Shown: piece after piece, positions 3,900-11,414 of the stretch
Layout of the letters: every line of letters starts with the position of its first letter
How positions within the stretch are numbered: the stretch's first letter is position 1
DNA from: an archaeon
GTDB taxonomy: Archaea > Nanobdellota > Nanobdellia > SCGC-AAA011-G17 > GW2011-AR17
Assembly (NCBI GenBank): GCA_043814545.1
Contig: JBDRJY010000018.1
Location: 18,046-82,045, forward strand
DNA: 64,000 bases
Reading direction: 5' to 3'
Notes under the pieces: model-generated
What the model saw: only the letters and a program-made list of their open reading frames with translations
The model's database searches: none
Told to the model about the DNA's origin: nothing
Position numbers and translations under genes: made by a program

Positions 3900-4589
3900 T
3901 TATTTTTTCTTAGTAGCTTCAGGTTTTTTTGTTTCAGCTGCTGATGTTGCAGTAGCTTTCTCAGTTTTAGCTGCAACCTGTGCAGCTTTATCATCAGCAG
4001 CTTTTTTAGAAGCTGCGATTTGATCAAGTTCTCCTTGGAACCCTTTACGAATATTATCAAGTTGTTCTTTAAGTTTAGCACGCTTTTCATCGCTAACTTC
4101 AATTTTACCCGAATTGATAACTTTATCAAACTCGCCAGCATCAATCTTAGGATTAATCTTTAAAGCAACCAAACCTTCAACAAGGACACCCATTGCGTTA
4201 GCTGATCCAATAACAGTTTTAACTGCGCTTCGAAGGTTACGGATAAACAATGAAGTTTCCTTCATCTTAGCGATTTTGATAACATCTTCCATCGCCATGT
4301 TAGCAACTTTGTCAATATTAGGTATACCTGATCCTTTTTGCAGATTAAGTTCTTTCTTAATTAACTGCGAAACTGGTGGCGTACCAACTTCAATTTCAAA
4401 CTCTTTCGTTTCAGTATCTACAGTAACTTTGACAGGAACTTTCATTCCTTTAAATATTTCAGTTTTTTTATTGATGGCTGCAACAACTTCACTAATGTTA
4501 ACTTTTAATGGACCTAAGGCTGGTCCTAATGGTGGCGCTGCAGTTGCTTTTCCGCCTTCAACAAGAGATTCAATTTTTTCTTTAGCCAT
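3900..4589 (-). CDS. rpl11: Ribosomal protein L11 (uL11) with a roughly 65-aa Lys/Ala-rich C-terminal extension
   Basis: N-terminal PPLGPALGPLKVNISEVV L11 signature. Residues after about 165 (KEQLDNIRKGFQGELDQIAASKKAADDKAAQVAAKTEKATATSAAETKKPEATKKK) are low-complexity basic tail. Confidence 0.9.
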   Translation of the reverse strand: MAKEKIESLVEGGKATAAPPLGPALGPLKVNISEVVAAINKKTEIFKGMKVPVKVTVDTETKEFEIEVGTPPVSQLIKKELNLQKGSGIPNIDKVANMAMEDVIKIAKMKETSLFIRNLRSAVKTVIGSANAMGVLVEGLVALKINPKIDAGEFDKVINSGKIEVSDEKRAKLKEQLDNIRKGFQGELDQIAASKKAADDKAAQVAAKTEKATATSAAETKKPEATKKK

Positions 4590-4716: not shown

Positions 4717-5013
4717 ATGAAAGATTATTATAGGGTGTTAGGTATAAGTGATTCTGCTAGTGAGGTAGATATTAAGAAAGCTCATCGTCGGCAGGCTCGT
4801 TATTGGCATCCTGACTTGAACAATAGTCCTGAAGCTACGGAAAGGTTTAAGGAAGTTCAAGAAGCTTATGAAAATTTGTCTTCAAATAGTTCTCAAACTG
4901 ATATTATATTTTCTGATATTATTTTTGGCGAAGGGATTGGTTATTTTTTCTCGTTGAAAGATATTACTGCTAAAGTCAGAGGCCAAGTAATTTATGCGAG
5001 GGGTGGGTTTTGA
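4717..5013 (+). CDS. J-domain (DnaJ-like) protein, small
   Basis: [32 protein letters not shown] with an HPD tripeptide; 98 aa, no Zn-finger or C-terminal domains. Confidence 0.65.
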
Positions 5014-5744
5014 ACAAAGATCAGTTAGCTTATTTATTTGGAACTTTGGTTAATCTTCATTCCGAAATAGTTGTATATTCTATAACAATAGGGGTTGTTA
5101 GTTTGGAATATATATTTTTTGACAAAATTGATTTAGATTTTTATAAAACAGCTTTACCTTTAGGAACTTTAACTTTTGGTTTAATTATGTCAAGAGAATT
5201 TGGTAAAGATAAATTGAAAGTTAAGAAGATGAAGAAAATGTTAAAAGCTAACCATGAAAAATATCCGAGACAAGATTATGAAAGAATTGTTTTTGAATAT
5301 CGTGACGGTTTAGAAATGTTGCTTTCGGAAACAGCCAAGAAAGGGAAATATGAATGGGGGACGTGTTATAAATATTCAAGTTCAGAAAATGATGCAGTAA
5401 TAACAGATATTTTATCTCTTGAAGAATCAAAGGAAAAAAAGTTTGTAACTGATGTAAGTGAATCTTCGGTTCAGATAGAATATAATTTTGCAAAAACATT
5501 TGGTTATAACGGCCATCATCATTATCATCCTAAAACAATTAGTAATGGATTAGATGCAGCTAATTTTGTAATTAATCAAAGGGATAGGTCTATTGCAGAC
5601 ATATGTCTTTTAACATTTATGCTTAACGGCAGACCAGAAATAATTGGATATAATTTGTTAAATACTTATATTCCTACTGATGCATCAAAAACAGTTTTGA
5701 CTAAAGCTACTTGGAAAGACATTTACAGGTATTTGGGAAAATAA
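5010..5744 (+). CDS. Membrane-anchored protein with a JAB/MPN-like metal-binding motif (candidate deubiquitinase-like peptidase)
   Basis: TTG start overlapping the J-domain stop (TTGA). Two N-terminal hydrophobic helices. C-terminal [26 protein letters not shown] resembles the JAMM core GW(Y)HSHPxxxxxxSxxD but with shorter spacing (HxHx4Sx3D); Glu residues lie 45-60 aa upstream. Confidence 0.35.
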
Positions 5745-5849
5745 TTCTAAATGTTTAGTTAGTTTATTTGTTTTCGTCGGAAATCTTTCTAAATTTTATG
5801 GCCAAACTTTATTAATATTTTTTTCTTAATCTTTTCCGAGGTGGTTTTA

Positions 5850-6185
5850 ATGGAAAAACATTATTTGTTGTTGAACACGGCTGCACATAAGGCAGCAACA
5901 GGAAGTTTAGGTTTGTTAAAAGAATTAGATCAAGATAGGGTTTTTGGTTCTTTTGAAGAACTGTTAAATTATACAGTTAATGAAAAGTATAAAGGTGATG
6001 AAGCAGACATTGCTAGCGAGGTATTATCATACCTTGACCAACAAGATGGGAAAAACGTCATCTTAGAAATTAACGTGAAAGGTAATAAAGCAAATTTAGA
6101 TGAAAAAGTTAAATCTTATTTTATTGAAAAAGAAGAGGATTATGTATTAGACGTAGAATTAAGTTTACGTTCAAGGGTGGGATGA
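5850..6185 (+). CDS. Small protein with a C-terminal ubiquitin-like (beta-grasp-like) segment ending ...YVLDVELSLRSRVG
   Basis: SD GAGGTGG 5 nt upstream of the ATG at 5850. The C-terminal about 45 aa (VILEINVKGNKANL...YVLDVELSLRSRVG*) parallels the ubiquitin TLHLVLRLRGG tail with a single terminal Gly. The stop lies 1 nt before the next gene. Confidence 0.35.
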   Translation: MEKHYLLLNTAAHKAATGSLGLLKELDQDRVFGSFEELLNYTVNEKYKGDEADIASEVLSYLDQQDGKNVILEINVKGNKANLDEKVKSYFIEKEEDYVLDVELSLRSRVG

Positions 6186-6186
6186 A

Positions 6187-7011
6187 ATGGTTTCACCCTT
6201 TTTTGATTATTTTAATTCTTCTTCTTTTTTAGTGATAGACAATATAATTTATACTATTAAAGAAAATGTTAAATGTGACAAATATTTAAACTTACATAAT
6301 TGCTGTTATGGTTTACAAAAAACGGAACCAGTTTCAATATTTTTAGATTTTAATGAAAAAGATAATAAAACTACTTTGGTAGAATTTGTCTTATGTAGTC
6401 TTATTGGAAAAAATATATCCTCATCGATTCAACCAAAACTAAATTTGTTTAATGAAGACATTTTTGTTTATTTTGGAAAAATGCATTTACTTTTTTCTTT
6501 AGATTCAAATCAGTATACAGTTGGTGCAAAAATTAAAACTTCTTTAAAAGATTATGATTTTTTGTTACAAAAACAGATTTATGTTAACCATCCTTTGATA
6601 AAAAATGTTTTAGATAAAGGAGAATATTATGATCAAGAAAAAGATTTAGGTGTCCATGTCCATAATAACATAGTTTATGTTACCAAACAATCAAAACCTT
6701 TTATGATACAAAATCAATATCATTTTCCTTCCGCAAAAATTGGTGTGCCTTTATATTTATCAGACGAAATTTCTTGGCAAGATCCTATAGTTATTAATGA
6801 TTATACACATCCGGCATTACCATCTAAGAACAAACCTTACCAAAAAATATGTTGTGGTAACTTCAACTTTAACCAAATTCGTGAACGTTATGATTTACCT
6901 TCACAGATTAAATCTGTGCTTTTTCATGCGGAACAATTTTTAACGAAAGGTGTTTGGGATGATGCAGCTGGCGCTTGGCATAGGTTATCAACAATGGAGA
7001 GACCACAATGA
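6187..7011 (+). CDS. Protein with a C-terminal UBC/E2-like domain
   Basis: C-terminal HFPSAKIGVPLYL...YTHPALPSKNKPYQKICCGNFNF...W...SQIKSVLFHAEQFL follows the UBC core pattern FPxxPP...HPN(x)8-10 C...W...SKVLLSIxSLL. Its stop overlaps the E1 ATG (ATGA). Confidence 0.5.
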   Translation: MVSPFFDYFNSSSFLVIDNIIYTIKENVKCDKYLNLHNCCYGLQKTEPVSIFLDFNEKDNKTTLVEFVLCSLIGKNISSSIQPKLNLFNEDIFVYFGKMHLLFSLDSNQYTVGAKIKTSLKDYDFLLQKQIYVNHPLIKNVLDKGEYYDQEKDLGVHVHNNIVYVTKQSKPFMIQNQYHFPSAKIGVPLYLSDEISWQDPIVINDYTHPALPSKNKPYQKICCGNFNFNQIRERYDLPSQIKSVLFHAEQFLTKGVWDDAAGAWHRLSTMERPQ

Positions 7012-8216
7012 ATTATTCAAGACAACGTATGTTTGACCAAAGCCAACTTTTGAATGGTCATGTAACAGTTATTGGTCAGACAAAAATCTCGGAATACCTT
7101 TGTGCTTACTTAGCTGCAATGGGTATAGGTAAGATTAGTTTGATTGGAGAGAAAAATGAAGAAACCAAACCGTTGCAAGAAACAATCTTCGAATTGAATC
7201 CAGATGTATCAGTTAAGATTTTACAACTTCCTTTTCATCGAGCTTTTGTTAATACTGATTCGATTTTAGTTGACACAACAAACTCTTTAGAATCAAAGTT
7301 TAAACTTAAGCAATTTGAAAAATATTTGAGTGCATCTTCTTCAACGGACTCTTTTATTATAAGTCCAGACTTCTTTCACCCCTTAGATTCTCCTCAAGGA
7401 GATTATACTAGTGCTATGGCGGCTGCGATTTTAGTTGACGAGATTCGTAAACAGATTTTTGAAGAGGATATAAATTTAAATTTTTTAACTTATTCGTTAG
7501 GCTCAAATCCAAGATTTTTTTCTAAATTAGAATATGATAATAATGTGGTTTTAAATTCAAAACGTGTTTTGGTAGTTGGAGCAGGGGGTATAGGCACTTA
7601 TGCATGTTTAAATTTAATTCCTTTAGGCGCAAAAATAGATTTATTTGACGGCGATAAAATCGAAGATCATAATTTGAACCGTCAGATTTTTTATTATAAT
7701 GCAATAGGAGAAAACAAAGCTCAGGTTTTGGCTAAGCGCCTTAAACATTTGACACGTTGGTCTCAGTTAAAACCGAATAAAAATTATTTAGACAAAAAAA
7801 CTCTTTACAATCTTCCTGACTACGACTGTATTTTAAGTTGCGTTGATAATTGGGAAACAAGAAAAATATTAAGTAAGTACGCTCTAATAACTGAAACATC
7901 ATTGATTAACGCTTCTGTTACAGCTTACACAGCTTCGTTAGAAATATATGTTCCTGGTTTGACTTCTTGTTTAGAATGTAGGCACGATTTTGACAGGTTA
8001 ATGCAGACAGAAACGGCACCAGCTTCTTGTTCAAACATTGCTAATTCTAATATTGTTTCAACGAACGCGTTTATTGGTGCAATGATGGCTGCTGAGTTTA
8101 AAGCATTAAGTTCTCCACAAATATATCCTCAGATTTACAACTACGAATTTCTTTACGATTCACAATCCAACCATAAATTTGCACAGATCCCAATTGAAGC
8201 GAGGTGTGTACATTGA
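7008..8216 (+). CDS. E1-like (ThiF/MoeB/Uba family) enzyme with tandem adenylation-like domains: degenerate N-terminal, canonical C-terminal
   Basis: Domain 2 has VLVVGAGGIGTYACLNLIPLGAKIDLFDGDKIEDHNLNRQIFY, DCILSCVDNWETRKIL and CxxC (SCLECRHDF). Domain 1 starts with the ThiF-like YSRQ...IGKISLIGE but lacks GxGxxG (VIGQTKISE). Confidence 0.75.
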   Translation: MNYSRQRMFDQSQLLNGHVTVIGQTKISEYLCAYLAAMGIGKISLIGEKNEETKPLQETIFELNPDVSVKILQLPFHRAFVNTDSILVDTTNSLESKFKLKQFEKYLSASSSTDSFIISPDFFHPLDSPQGDYTSAMAAAILVDEIRKQIFEEDINLNFLTYSLGSNPRFFSKLEYDNNVVLNSKRVLVVGAGGIGTYACLNLIPLGAKIDLFDGDKIEDHNLNRQIFYYNAIGENKAQVLAKRLKHLTRWSQLKPNKNYLDKKTLYNLPDYDCILSCVDNWETRKILSKYALITETSLINASVTAYTASLEIYVPGLTSCLECRHDFDRLMQTETAPASCSNIANSNIVSTNAFIGAMMAAEFKALSSPQIYPQIYNYEFLYDSQSNHKFAQIPIEARCVH

Positions 8217-8632
8217 GCACCTTAGATTTATTGTTAACAAATGTATATTGTCCGGTTCAATATGATAAATTAGAAGAAATAAGCTTAGACAAACGTTTAT
8301 CTTACAAAAAATCGTTACAAGAATTTAAGCGATACGCAACAACCGAATATTCTAATGATTTAGCAAACATTCTTTTAGGAGAATTTGTTGGCAGAAAATT
8401 GGATTGGAACGATAGGTTAAAATTTTTTTACATGCGATATAATTCTTTAACTTCTTTGACAGAATCTCAAGAAGTTTCGTATTTAATTAATATATTAAAC
8501 AAAAATAAATATGTAAACAAAAAATACAAAAAACAACTCAAACAAGTAAAAAAGAAATTAAAACCAGGATTAATTAAAAGAATTTTGTTTAATCTTCTTC
8601 ATCCTCGCTATGATCATCTTCCCGACGGATAA
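8204..8632 (+). CDS. hypothetical protein (last gene of the E1/E2 cassette)
   Basis: GTG start overlapping the E1 stop. Basic C-terminus. The 3' end overlaps the convergent spt5 by about 44 nt, so its exact extent is uncertain. Confidence 0.35.
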   Translation: MCTLSTLDLLLTNVYCPVQYDKLEEISLDKRLSYKKSLQEFKRYATTEYSNDLANILLGEFVGRKLDWNDRLKFFYMRYNSLTSLTESQEVSYLINILNKNKYVNKKYKKQLKQVKKKLKPGLIKRILFNLLHPRYDHLPDG

Positions 8633-9062
8633 CTTTAACTGCATCCATTTTCAATGTAACTGGAATAGGTACAGCAGCTTCAAGCAACTCAACAATAACT
8701 TCTTCTTTTTGTTCATCTAATCTTGAAATTTTAGCTTTTTCATGTTTGAACGGACCAGAGATGATTTCAACAATGTCATTTTTCTGCATATTGATAGGCG
8801 TTTTAATTTGTTCTAGCATACCTTCAATTTCTTCGTACTCAACGGGTTTAGGTAACAAGCCTTTAGCATAAGGAACACCTTGAAAAGATTCTTCAGCATC
8901 TTCTTTACTAATTGCTTCAAGAAAAATGTAACTTCGCATACCATGTGGTCTAATCACACTGTATACACCAAGCTTTTTCTTTTGTACGTTAGACGTAACA
9001 AAGTCTACAACTTGATCTTCCCTGTTTGCTGTTGTTCTTAACACAAAAATTTTATTTTCCAT
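8589..9062 (-). CDS. spt5: Transcription elongation factor Spt5 (NusG homolog)
   Basis: NGN domain (IFVLRTTANREDQVVDFV) plus KOW (NDIVEIISGPFKHEKAKISRL); acidic C-terminus. Confidence 0.85.
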   Translation of the reverse strand: MENKIFVLRTTANREDQVVDFVTSNVQKKKLGVYSVIRPHGMRSYIFLEAISKEDAEESFQGVPYAKGLLPKPVEYEEIEGMLEQIKTPINMQKNDIVEIISGPFKHEKAKISRLDEQKEEVIVELLEAAVPIPVTLKMDAVKVIRREDDHSEDEED

Positions 9063-9064
9063 TT

Positions 9065-9247
9065 TTACGCGGTGATTATTTGAACTGCTATTGTAATGCT
9101 AAACCCAATTAAACCAATAATAGCCATGCCAAGCCCAGTAATCTTAACTATGGTTTTGAGCTCTTCCATGTTGGGTTTTTTGGTTATCTTGAGTACCCTT
9201 ATGCTTTCTTTTATAAAGCTTTTGATTTTAATAAAAATAGGACTCAT
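9065..9247 (-). CDS. secE: Preprotein translocase subunit SecE (Sec61 gamma)
   Basis: 60 aa with a single C-terminal TM helix; conserved position directly upstream of spt5. Confidence 0.7.
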   Translation of the reverse strand: MSPIFIKIKSFIKESIRVLKITKKPNMEELKTIVKITGLGMAIIGLIGFSITIAVQIITA

Positions 9248-10217: not shown

Positions 10218-11414
10218 TTATTCTGTAACAAACTTTGCCCAATGTTTTCTGTACCATTCATAACGAGTATCAAGTTCTTCTTTTGTAGATTGTTTAACAC
10301 TTAACTCATCTAATTTTTTTCTTAATGTTTGAATAGCATCTTCTTCAAAACCTTCTAAAATCAGTTTTTCTAACTCTAGAACAGGACCGTAAACTTTTGT
10401 GTCACCTAACTGAACTTTAATATCGTTCCATTTGAAAGTGTGCCTTCTTCGTGACCATTTGGTATTGACTTCGTAACCTAAGGTTTGTATTAAATACATC
10501 ATTTCTGTAAAAAATTCAGGGGCAGTATGTAAATTAATTTCTTTATGAATCTCATCATGCATGTCGCCTATCTTTAAACATAAATTCATAGAATCATCGG
10601 TTCTTACGACCCGTAGATACTTGTTATCCATTTCAAACAAATGAGTAAACTGTTGTTGTTCTCTAACAAAAGGAGTATTTTGTGTAAAAAAGTCTAACAA
10701 CCGAAGATAGTCTCTTTTTGAAAGAAGACTTTTTGTTTCAATTTCTACAACATTCAGAGGTTCATTTATAGGTTTTTCTTTTGTAGGAACATTTGTATTT
10801 TCAGGAATAAAAGTTTTCCAATGTCTTTGAAACCATTCAAACTTATCATCCATAACTTCTTGTGTTGTAGGTTCTATACCTAAGGAGCAAAATTTATTTT
10901 TTAATTCATTCACAATCTCAGGGTTTTGTTCTTGGCTCATAACTTCCATGTCAATAAGACAACCATAACCAAGAGTATCATTAAGAGTAACCTTAACCCC
11001 TCCCCATCTAAACTCGTGCCGTTTACGTTTCCAAACACTATTTATTTCATAACCTAAATTAAGAAAAAGTAATTTTAGCTCAGGAAATTGTTCATGGGCA
11101 TACCTAACAGTAATCTTTTGTTTTTGTTCACTATTTATTCCACCAATCTTAACTTGAACAAAAGCATGAGAAAGGTTTTGCTGAATCCTTAACTCTTGAT
11201 CACCTTTAAAATAATAAGTTAATTGTTCGTCAACTTTTACTAACTCACCTTCACGTGAAAATAATTTAAGAAAATCTTGATATTTATTCCTTGAGATCAA
11301 ACCACGTACTTCATTTTCAATTGTCCGTTCGTTAGGTAATATTAAACTTTCTAAAGATTCTTGAGAATTAAAAGTTTTATTCCATAATCCATATAAATAT
11401 GAACAAAAAGCCAT
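10218..11414 (-). CDS. Tandem CYTH (triphosphate tunnel metalloenzyme, CyaB/ThTPase-like) domain protein
   Basis: Two repeated halves, each ending ...W(K/S)R(K/R)RH(E/T)F(R/K)W..(V/I)KV.L.DT..YG...(D/E)(M/L)E. The second half starts VVEIETK (ExExK) and the first has the degenerate ENEVR. Confidence 0.6.
   Translation of the reverse strand: MAFCSYLYGLWNKTFNSQESLESLILPNERTIENEVRGLISRNKYQDFLKLFSREGELVKVDEQLTYYFKGDQELRIQQNLSHAFVQVKIGGINSEQKQKITVRYAHEQFPELKLLFLNLGYEINSVWKRKRHEFRWGGVKVTLNDTLGYGCLIDMEVMSQEQNPEIVNELKNKFCSLGIEPTTQEVMDDKFEWFQRHWKTFIPENTNVPTKEKPINEPLNVVEIETKSLLSKRDYLRLLDFFTQNTPFVREQQQFTHLFEMDNKYLRVVRTDDSMNLCLKIGDMHDEIHKEINLHTAPEFFTEMMYLIQTLGYEVNTKWSRRRHTFKWNDIKVQLGDTKVYGPVLELEKLILEGFEEDAIQTLRKKLDELSVKQSTKEELDTRYEWYRKHWAKFVTE

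Follow-up and report, generated by a model that had tools for sequence, protein, structure and literature searches.

In this study, we have analyzed a 64,000-nucleotide stretch of DNA from a DPANN-type archaeon with a small genome (contig JBDRJY010000018.1; the whole stretch is called the window here) in which a plus-strand gene at positions 7008 to 8216 encodes an E1-like enzyme with two adenylation domains in one chain, the N-terminal one degenerate and the C-terminal one intact. The internal duplication, the degeneracy of the first half, the intactness of the second half, the E1 fold and the linkage of the gene to its partners are demonstrated below, and it is probable that the protein is the activating enzyme of a compact E1-E2-modifier protein-conjugation cassette, with a heterodimer built into a single polypeptide. 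The fusion of a dead and a live adenylation domain was long considered a hallmark of eukaryotes, and the first demonstration in a prokaryote came in 2023/24, with the bacterial protein BilD, whose inactive adenylation domain (IAD) and active adenylation domain (AAD) form a pseudo-dimer (PMC10557695); the premise of a preliminary description of the window, that prokaryotic E1 enzymes are normally homodimeric, is out of date for that reason, and because of this precedent the layout reported here is not categorically new. BilD is the only published prokaryotic E1 with the IAD-AAD layout that we found (PMC10557695; reviewed in PMC11354881), and our literature search found no description of such an enzyme in DPANN or in archaea, nor of tandem prokaryotic E1s besides BilD.

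The gene and the elements of its product are as follows.

7008-8216, plus strand: E1-like enzyme, predicted IAD and AAD pseudo-dimer in a single chain; open reading frame (ORF) of 402 residues, ATG to TGA, with a ThiF match, an AlphaFold2 model and Foldseek matches
7008-7502, plus strand: IAD, residues 1-165, assigned by hhalign against the C-terminal half and by stand-alone matches of the N-half profile
7014-7025, plus strand: YSRQ, residues 3-6, in which Arg5 is the presumed arginine finger from the IAD to the ATP site of the AAD
7068-7094, plus strand: VIGQTKISE, residues 21-29, the degenerate glycine loop of the IAD
7269-7283, plus strand: VDTTN, the IAD counterpart of CVDNW in the hhalign register
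7503-8213, plus strand: AAD, residues 166-402, assigned from the Pfam ThiF stretch and PDB matches
7578-7598, plus strand: GAGGIGT, nucleotide-binding loop, residues 191-197
7647-7718, plus strand: DGDKIEDHNLNRQ (residues 214-226, nucleotides 7647-7685) through Lys237, the ATP, Mg and arginine motifs, assigned by conservation
7824-7850, plus strand: DCILSCVDN, residues 273-281, with the catalytic Asp280
7968-7979, plus strand: CLEC, residues 321-324, crossover-loop half of a presumed Zn site, assigned by conservation and analogy with BilD
8028-8030, plus strand: Cys341, candidate cysteine for thioester formation, in a crossover loop that is short and flexible, singled out by its invariance
8202-8213, plus strand: C-terminal RCVH, which presumably completes the Zn site (Cys400 and His402), assigned by conservation

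The family comparison covered 45 distinct two-domain E1 sequences with a strong N-half match, taken from independent genomes, and the residue counts given below refer to this set. Since the two-domain layout recurs in all of these genomes, it is not an artifact of assembly or gene calling. The duplication became evident when a 26-sequence family alignment was divided at residue 165 and the halves were compared by hhalign: the N-half profile matched the C-half profile with a probability of 98.4% and an E value of 4.9e-15 over 151 aligned columns, residues 12 to 163 falling on residues 180 to 384. A profile of 38 N-halves also matched MoeB (E 2.8e-21), ThiF (E 1.4e-20) and Uba4 in the PDB, and further matched both the IADs and the AADs of Uba1, UBA6 and UBA7, together with NAE1 and SAE1. 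These two lines of evidence identify the N-terminal half as a ThiF/E1 adenylation domain that has degenerated and exclude the possibility, raised in the preliminary description, that it is a rhodanese or some other unrelated fold. The extent of about 180 residues proposed there for the first domain has to be corrected, its boundary lying nearer residue 165. A special kinship of the N-half with eukaryotic or BilD IADs was considered and is not supported; MoeB and ThiF score best.

All the motifs quoted in the preliminary description are present in the protein where it had placed them. The first domain begins, as described, with YSRQ, which aligns on RYNRQ of MoeB and RYSRQ of ThiF; Arg5 is kept in 42 of the 45 relatives and Gln6 in 39. 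In MoeB-type dimers the arginine of this N-terminal motif reaches the ATP site of the partner subunit, and the same holds for Arg9 of BilD, which comes from the IAD (PMC10557695). By analogy, Arg5 may be an arginine finger that the dead N-terminal half supplies to the ATP site of the AAD. Alignment on GAGGIGT of the AAD bore out the replacement of GxGxxG by VIGQTKISE: Gly23 alone is invariant in this loop, and position 25 is Gly in 18 and Asp in 16 of the 45 sequences. In the hhalign register, Thr91 (35/45) stands where the AAD has Asp280, the catalytic and Mg-binding aspartate; furthermore, the DxD...NLxRQ...K segment is deleted or replaced in the N-half, and the CxxC motif is absent. On the simplest reading, the dead domain would have been retained as a scaffold and as the donor of the arginine finger.

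The second domain, in contrast to the first, holds every catalytic element attributed to it in the preliminary description, namely, GAGGIGT, DGDKIEDHNLNRQ, DCILSCVDN and CLEC. Gly191, Gly193 and Gly196 of the nucleotide-binding loop, Asp214, Asp216, Asn222, Leu223, Arg225, Gln226 and Lys237 of the ATP, Mg and arginine motifs, and the catalytic Asp280 are invariant (45/45), so that the nucleotide- and Mg-binding residues are kept throughout the family; Arg285 is present in 43 of the 45 sequences. The active-site elements of the superfamily (GxGxxG, DxD, the arginine of NLxRQ, the lysine and the catalytic aspartate) all lie within residues 191 to 281. The whole protein matched the Pfam ThiF model (PF00899) in two separate stretches with an E value of 7.7e-43 and 146.8 bits, above the gathering threshold of 28.1 bits, which places it in the E1/ThiF/MoeB superfamily; the stronger stretch spans residues 176 to 396. 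The identical protein has been deposited under no other title than "ThiF family adenylyltransferase [archaeon]."

From the family alignment, AlphaFold2 produced a confident model, with a mean predicted local distance difference test score (pLDDT) of 88.7 and a predicted template modeling score (pTM) of 0.91. Foldseek comparison of the whole chain recovered UBA7 (E 4e-19, query-normalized TM-score [TMq] 0.76), UBA6 and Uba1 (TMq 0.62 to 0.70) and the BilD chains 8tyz_A and 8tz0_A (E about 4e-16, TMq 0.71, identity 13%). Because a TM-score of about 0.7 normalized over 402 residues needs both domains to be superposed, the halves are predicted to pack as an E1 pseudo-dimer, and the model supports the interpretation of the chain as an IAD and an AAD joined in this way. 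The model superposes on Uba1, UBA6 and UBA7 over both adenylation domains; the likeness to Uba1-type enzymes claimed in the preliminary description holds for the IAD-AAD core and ends there, as the window protein lacks the FCCH, SCCH/CYS and UFD domains. A check for a Cys-domain insertion found none: 16 residues separate Cys324 from Cys341, and the IAD carries no insertion. The chain stops at ...ARCVH, right after the last strand of the AAD, and there is thus no UFD.

The crossover region contains a presumed metal site and a candidate catalytic cysteine. Cys321 is present in 41 of the 45 relatives, Cys324 in 35, with His replacing it in 6 more, and Cys400 in 41, the motif at the latter place being mostly CxC or CxCH. 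The CLEC-type motif and the C-terminal Cys pair are lost jointly in four relatives (L027, L031, L032 and L044), as expected if they form one Zn site, as in BilD, where Zn is held by the crossover CxxC and two C-terminal cysteines (PMC10557695). By this analogy, Cys321, Cys324, Cys400 and His402 presumably bind Zn in the window protein. Cys341 is invariant (45/45), including in the four sequences without both Zn motifs, which indicates a role that does not depend on Zn. The distance from the CxxC motif to Cys341 is 10 to 28 residues across the family (16 in the window protein), and the loop around this cysteine is the least confident part of the AlphaFold2 model, with a pLDDT below 50 at residues 338 to 340. 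We infer that Cys341 is the thioester cysteine, carried on a mobile crossover loop.

The E1 gene stands third in a tight row of four plus-strand genes that are translationally coupled. The stop codon of the gene for a 274-residue protein overlaps the E1 start (ATGA), and the ORF at 8204-8632 overlaps the E1 stop. The two genes upstream encode the candidate partners of the enzyme.

5841-6185, plus strand: small candidate modifier, 114 residues from GTG 5841 or 111 residues from ATG 5850, ending in ...LRSRVG and then a stop codon
6187-7011, plus strand: E2-like protein, 274 residues, with an N-terminal beta-rich region and a C-terminal UBC-like domain with His208-Pro209...Cys222

The modifier, the 274-residue protein and the 142-residue product of the ORF at 8204-8632 had no match in Pfam, NCBIfam or PADLOC. 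Homologue loci were scanned with hidden Markov models made from our own alignments, and genes within 6 kb on the same strand were counted at 46 well-flanked two-domain E1 loci. An E2-like gene was found at 42 of these loci and a JAB/JAMM protease gene at 37, both being present at 33; the JAB proteins of the cassettes bear the canonical E...HSHx7SxxD motif. Most hosts belong to the Woesearchaeota, Pacearchaeota, Nanoarchaeota and Aenigmatarchaeota, and some are bacterial metagenome-assembled genomes, from Desulfobacterales, Syntrophobacterales, Latescibacterota, Acetothermia and others. The window itself is archaeal by gene content (L11, L37ae, prefoldin, Spt5, SecE, FtsZ and aIF5A), with a G+C content of about 32% and no G+C anomaly at the cassette.

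Variant cassettes were observed among the relatives. One locus (L004, 3878-10117) carries two JAB genes and two paralogous modifier genes, the product of one of which lacks the Gly and ends in ...AVSP; at another (L020, 3732-8356), three E2-like paralogues follow the E1 gene. These expanded cassettes suggest a diversification of specificity. At the loci L055 to L086, from Desulfobacterales and Syntrophobacterales, the E1 protein has about 413 residues, the N-half profile match is limited to the first ~50 of them, and genes for an E2-like protein of about 371 residues and a JAB protein of about 266 residues follow downstream of the E1 gene, in a different gene order. These loci may belong to a bacterial branch of the system that has degenerated further.

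The last codons of the candidate modifier gene are AGG GTG GGA TGA, and the ATG of the E2-like gene, which lies directly downstream, follows one base later. Since GTG 5841 lies within a GAGGTG Shine-Dalgarno-like motif that precedes ATG 5850, the latter is the likelier start; from it the protein begins MEKHYLLL..., matching the start of the orthologue at the most closely related locus (L001). The window protein ends at the Gly of ...RSRVG, and 14 of the 15 listed relatives have [VIMGST]G near the C terminus, followed by 0 to 4 residues in 12 cases and by 10 to 11 residues in two of the weakest matches (examples are VGNGTA, IGYKTA, VGANE, VGCR, VGGK and VGR...). Such a near-terminal Gly has the look of a signature of modifiers conjugated via a terminal Gly, often after trimming. 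The length of the protein across the family is 114 to 196 residues, and that of the window copy is 111 to 114. The modifiers of the window and of L001 end exactly at Gly, and these two cassettes have no JAB gene. The association between absence of JAB and a modifier ending at Gly had a Fisher p of 0.03; as the two JAB-less loci are closely related, it is only suggestive.

For the 274-residue protein, word-indexed homologue searches were near-empty, and an exhaustive HMMER search of a 1.84-billion-protein library was used instead, which returned 294 cluster representatives at an E value of ≤0.001. In an 89-sequence alignment of this family only Gly155, Phe180, His208, Pro209 and Cys222 were conserved in ≥90% of members, Pro209 in all; the resulting motif, Y-x-H-P...13...C, is reminiscent of the HPN...C signature of E2 enzymes. 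The AlphaFold2 model (pLDDT 89.6) consists of a beta-rich N-terminal region, a helix, a beta-meander, a long loop with the HP motif and Cys222, and two helices. When the PDB was searched with profiles of the E2-like and modifier families, only spurious matches (designed TIM barrels, for example) were returned. In a Foldseek comparison of the model with the PDB, however, the top 50 weak matches (E 0.07 to 0.6) were nearly all UBC E2s (Ubc13, UBE2H, UBE2S and UbcH8) or RWD domains. These matches and the motif make it probable, though unproven, that the protein is E2-like, and Cys222 would be its thioester site.

Sequence matches of the E1 protein bear on two other explanations of its function. 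As single sequences, the PDB matches of the AAD were MccB, ThiF, SAE2, UBA3, Uba4 and MoeB, with MccB best (E 9e-14) and PaaA also present, and the best NCBIfam models for the protein were ThiF, MoeB and UbaA. One explanation may be that the enzyme activates a sulfur carrier, in the manner of MoeB, ThiF, UbaA or Uba4, for tRNA thiolation or cofactor synthesis. ThiF, MoeB and Uba4 are among the closest sequences, and the position of Cys341 in a short crossover loop is that found in ThiF/MoeB-type enzymes; Cys184 of ThiF lies in such a loop. However, the NCBIfam scores are all far below the family cut-offs (111.6 against 275 for ThiF), the Pfam and ORF analysis of the cassette found no rhodanese domain and no thiamine, molybdenum cofactor or NcsA genes, the one-chain IAD-AAD layout is not known among sulfur-transfer E1s, and the family is linked to E2-like and JAMM genes at most of the 46 loci, so that we regard a sulfur-carrier activator as very unlikely.

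The ranking of MccB raises the other explanation, namely, that the protein is an adenylating enzyme of the MccB/PaaA type, of the kind active in the maturation of peptides or of ribosomally synthesized and post-translationally modified peptides, and that it modifies the C terminus of a small product without a thioester relay. The small ORF upstream would suit this reading, as would the match to PaaA. Nevertheless, the MccB match extends only over the generic adenylation core, a dead ThiF repeat and not a peptide clamp of the MccB type makes up the N-terminal domain, and an invariant Cys341 and E2-like and JAMM partners are unexpected for such chemistry; the upstream product, moreover, has 111 to 114 residues and ends in Gly. 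A peptide-maturation enzyme is highly improbable on this evidence.

The genomic setting and the family-level matches bear on a third alternative, in which the cassette would be an archaeal orthologue of the bacterial BilABCD antiviral ubiquitination system, with the E1 protein as BilD and virion proteins as the targets of tagging. BilD shares the IAD-AAD layout and the fold (TMq 0.71), the relatives of the window cassette encode the same kinds of partner (modifier, E2-like protein and JAB), and in remoter relatives, where the cassette lies elsewhere in the genome, it adjoins toxin-antitoxin-type genes (HEPN/MNT, PIN/RHH or ParE). The CYS domain of BilD, of about 80 residues, is nevertheless absent, and the HP of the E2-like family precedes its Cys, with no conserved His after it, unlike the CEHH of BilB. 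In a search of the PDB with the E1 family profile, SAE2 was the best match (E 4.6e-30), followed in the lead by ThiF and MoeB; Uba1, Cap2 and BubCD were also among the best 60 of the 76 matches, and BilD was outside these 60. PADLOC gave only E1-E2 (Cap2-type) matches, confined to residues 169 to 331, that is, to the AAD, and nothing for the partners. The plus-strand cassette of the window (4717-8632) lies, by a DnaJ gene, between rpl11 (3900-4589, minus strand) and spt5/secE (8589-9247, minus strand) and not in a defense island. Orthology to the Bil system is therefore unlikely.

The rpl11-spt5/secE gene cluster is normally contiguous in archaea, and the cassette, by its position, splits it; L001 is arranged alike.

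For the preferred reading, a conjugation cassette with a built-in heterodimeric E1, we infer the following scheme, which extends to the identity of the substrate, the targets and every chemical step. The dead N-terminal domain (residues 1-165) would stand in for the partner subunit found in MoeB/ThiF-type homodimers and would contribute Arg5 to the one active site. ATP and Mg would be bound by the C-terminal domain (residues 166-402), which would also adenylate the C-terminal Gly of the modifier (...RSRVG); the modifier would then move onto Cys341 as a thioester, be handed from there to Cys222 of the E2-like protein and finally be conjugated to its targets. The Zn site formed by Cys321 and Cys324 with Cys400 and His402 would staple the crossover loop to the C terminus. 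It can be envisioned that in most related genomes the JAMM protease of the cassette trims the short tail of the modifier precursor and possibly removes the tag; in the window genome, the modifier would be made with its Gly already exposed, from a cassette without a JAMM gene.

Several results weigh against the reading as a conjugation cassette. The top single-sequence PDB matches of the C-half were MccB and ThiF, not E1s of conjugation systems. Cys341 could in principle be structural instead of catalytic. No deconjugating protease or JAB-family ORF was found anywhere in the 64-kb window. The modifier family showed no sequence similarity to ubiquitin or NEDD8 by hhalign and had no PDB profile match. 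Foldseek comparison of the 274-residue model with the PDB gave no match at an E value of ≤0.001, the best being 0.07. Comparison of the E2-like domain with five canonical E2s by hhalign was nonsignificant (probability 3%), and the single alignment obtained, itself nonsignificant, set HP on HPN and Cys222 on the catalytic Cys85 of UBE2D2. Finally, no Pfam Prok-E2, UQ_con or recurrent family was found in any of the 89 members of the E2-like alignment.

Three further genes of the plus-strand cassette, and one gene beyond it, were also characterized.

4717-5013, plus strand: DnaJ-domain protein (Pfam DnaJ, E 5.9e-20), conserved only in L001
5010-5744, plus strand: 244-residue protein, conserved only in L001, its gene overlapping the stop codon of the DnaJ gene
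8204-8632, plus strand: downstream ORF, 142 residues, 52% identical to its L001 orthologue, both ending in ...DG
10218-11414, minus strand: ORF of 398 residues with two alike halves

The 244-residue protein had no family match in Pfam, NCBIfam or PADLOC. Its HHHYHP motif had suggested a JAB protease; this identification was rejected, as the hhalign probability was 2.6% and the spacing does not fit JAMM. The protein and its L001 orthologue share a G-x-x-H-[YF]-H ... D-R stretch with E...EW upstream, and the window copy has additional hydrophobic N-terminal segments; it might be a very divergent metallo-enzyme. For the 142-residue protein, a role as a further substrate or as an accessory factor is conceivable. 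The small ORFs 3' of the E1 gene do not form a single family: the 142/138-residue and 136/138-residue products of different lineages show no detectable relationship, and the window protein is not detectably related to the products of about 137 residues encoded after the E1 gene in L002 and L006. In the 398-residue ORF, LGYEINSVWKRKRHEFRWGGVKV of one half corresponds to LGYEVNTKWSRRRHTFKWNDIKV of the other, and KFEWFQRHWKTF to RYEWYRKHWAKF; a faint match to Pfam CYTH was obtained for the orthologue in L001, and the protein looks like a tandem CYTH-like duplication.

The window enzyme extends the fused architecture to archaea, in a smaller form with a loop cysteine and with E2-like and modifier families that current databases do not annotate; the E2-like family alone comprises 294 cluster representatives missed by present domain databases. 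It provides a naturally minimal E1 with which the need for a CYS domain and a UFD in thioester relay could be tested, and it would offer a minimal model of how transfer from E1 to E2 can be achieved with no more than a loop cysteine and a dead subunit. It also adds a data point to the debate over whether ubiquitination originated in bacteria, in archaea or several times, and our view of the places and the number of times at which the eukaryotic E1 architecture evolved would change if the IAD-AAD fusion shares ancestry with eukaryotic E1s or arose independently of BilD. More tentatively, we put forward the possibility that a ubiquitin-like conjugation system not described before, common among DPANN archaea and also found in some bacteria, has its type example in this cassette. 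Such a system would combine the most reduced IAD-AAD E1 known (about 400 residues, with its catalytic cysteine on a bare crossover loop and neither a CYS domain nor a UFD), a new E2-like family whose HP...Cys active site is of the eukaryotic style, a modifier unlike ubiquitin in sequence and an optional JAMM maturase.

The window enzyme was compared with several known systems. Eukaryotic Uba1, UBA6 and UBA7, which are single chains, and the heterodimers SAE1-SAE2 and NAE1-UBA3 have the same pseudo-dimer with a single active site; the window enzyme, at 402 residues against about 1000, has no FCCH, four-helix bundle, SCCH/CYS or UFD, and its candidate cysteine sits directly in the crossover loop, as in noncanonical E1s and unlike the canonical eukaryotic enzymes. 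MoeB, ThiF, UbaA and Uba4/Uba5 agree with the window enzyme in fold and adenylation motifs, in a Cys borne by a short crossover loop and in the N-terminal arginine-finger motif RY(S/N)RQ; they have a Zn site of Cys pairs, which is presumed for the window enzyme. Enzymes of the MoeB/ThiF type, however, are homodimers of active subunits and belong to sulfur metabolism, whereas in the window enzyme the counterpart of the second subunit is part of the same chain and catalytically dead, and the family occurs with E2-like and JAMM genes. Cap2 of CBASS type II is an E2-E1 fusion that forms a homodimer and is encoded with a CD-NTase; the window enzyme is unfused, and its cassette has no CD-NTase. The E1 of the Bub systems (6E/DUF6527) is homodimeric and uses an oxyester (PMC11601596); it has no catalytic Cys, a Tyr taking its place, and its E2 is of a Ser type, whereas the window enzyme has the invariant Cys341 and its E2-like partner Cys222, and no match to the DUF6527 protease of those systems was found in the window with Pfam.

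The ubiquitin operons of Caldiarchaeum and Asgard archaea likewise join an archaeal E1 with an E2-type protein and a JAMM protease, which exposes the Gly of the modifier, and their E2 has an HPN-type loop (PMC5654768). They differ from the window cassette in having a recognizable ubiquitin, a canonical UBC E2, a RING E3 and an E1 cysteine domain of about 60 residues; the window partner proteins have no Pfam match to the ubiquitin, UBC or RING families of those operons, and no RING protein was found in the window.

BilD of Ensifer aridi (PDB 8TYZ and 8TZ0) shares its layout with the window enzyme: both are IAD-AAD pseudo-dimers with an arginine finger from the N terminus of the IAD, presumed in the window enzyme, both have a crossover CxxC and a C-terminal Cys motif and no FCCH or UFD, and both are encoded with a modifier and an E2-type protein, candidates in the case of the window, with JAMM proteases in relatives of the window cassette. 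The Zn motif of BilD has its presumed counterpart in the sequence motifs CLEC and Cys400/His402, and BilD passes its modifier to its E2 by a thioester relay (PMC10557695). BilD differs in its size (about 505 residues, with a mobile, alpha-helical CYS domain in the crossover loop and about 74 residues between Cys343 and Cys417, against 402 residues and a 16-residue loop), in its E2 partner BilB, which has a C...H motif (CEHH) and belongs to another family than the HP...C partner in the window, in being more distant in sequence from the window enzyme than SAE2, ThiF and MoeB are, and in its host, which is bacterial, whereas that of the window enzyme is archaeal. In conclusion, the window enzyme is a distinct, smaller archaeal variant of the fused E1 architecture, encoded with cassette partners from unannotated families.

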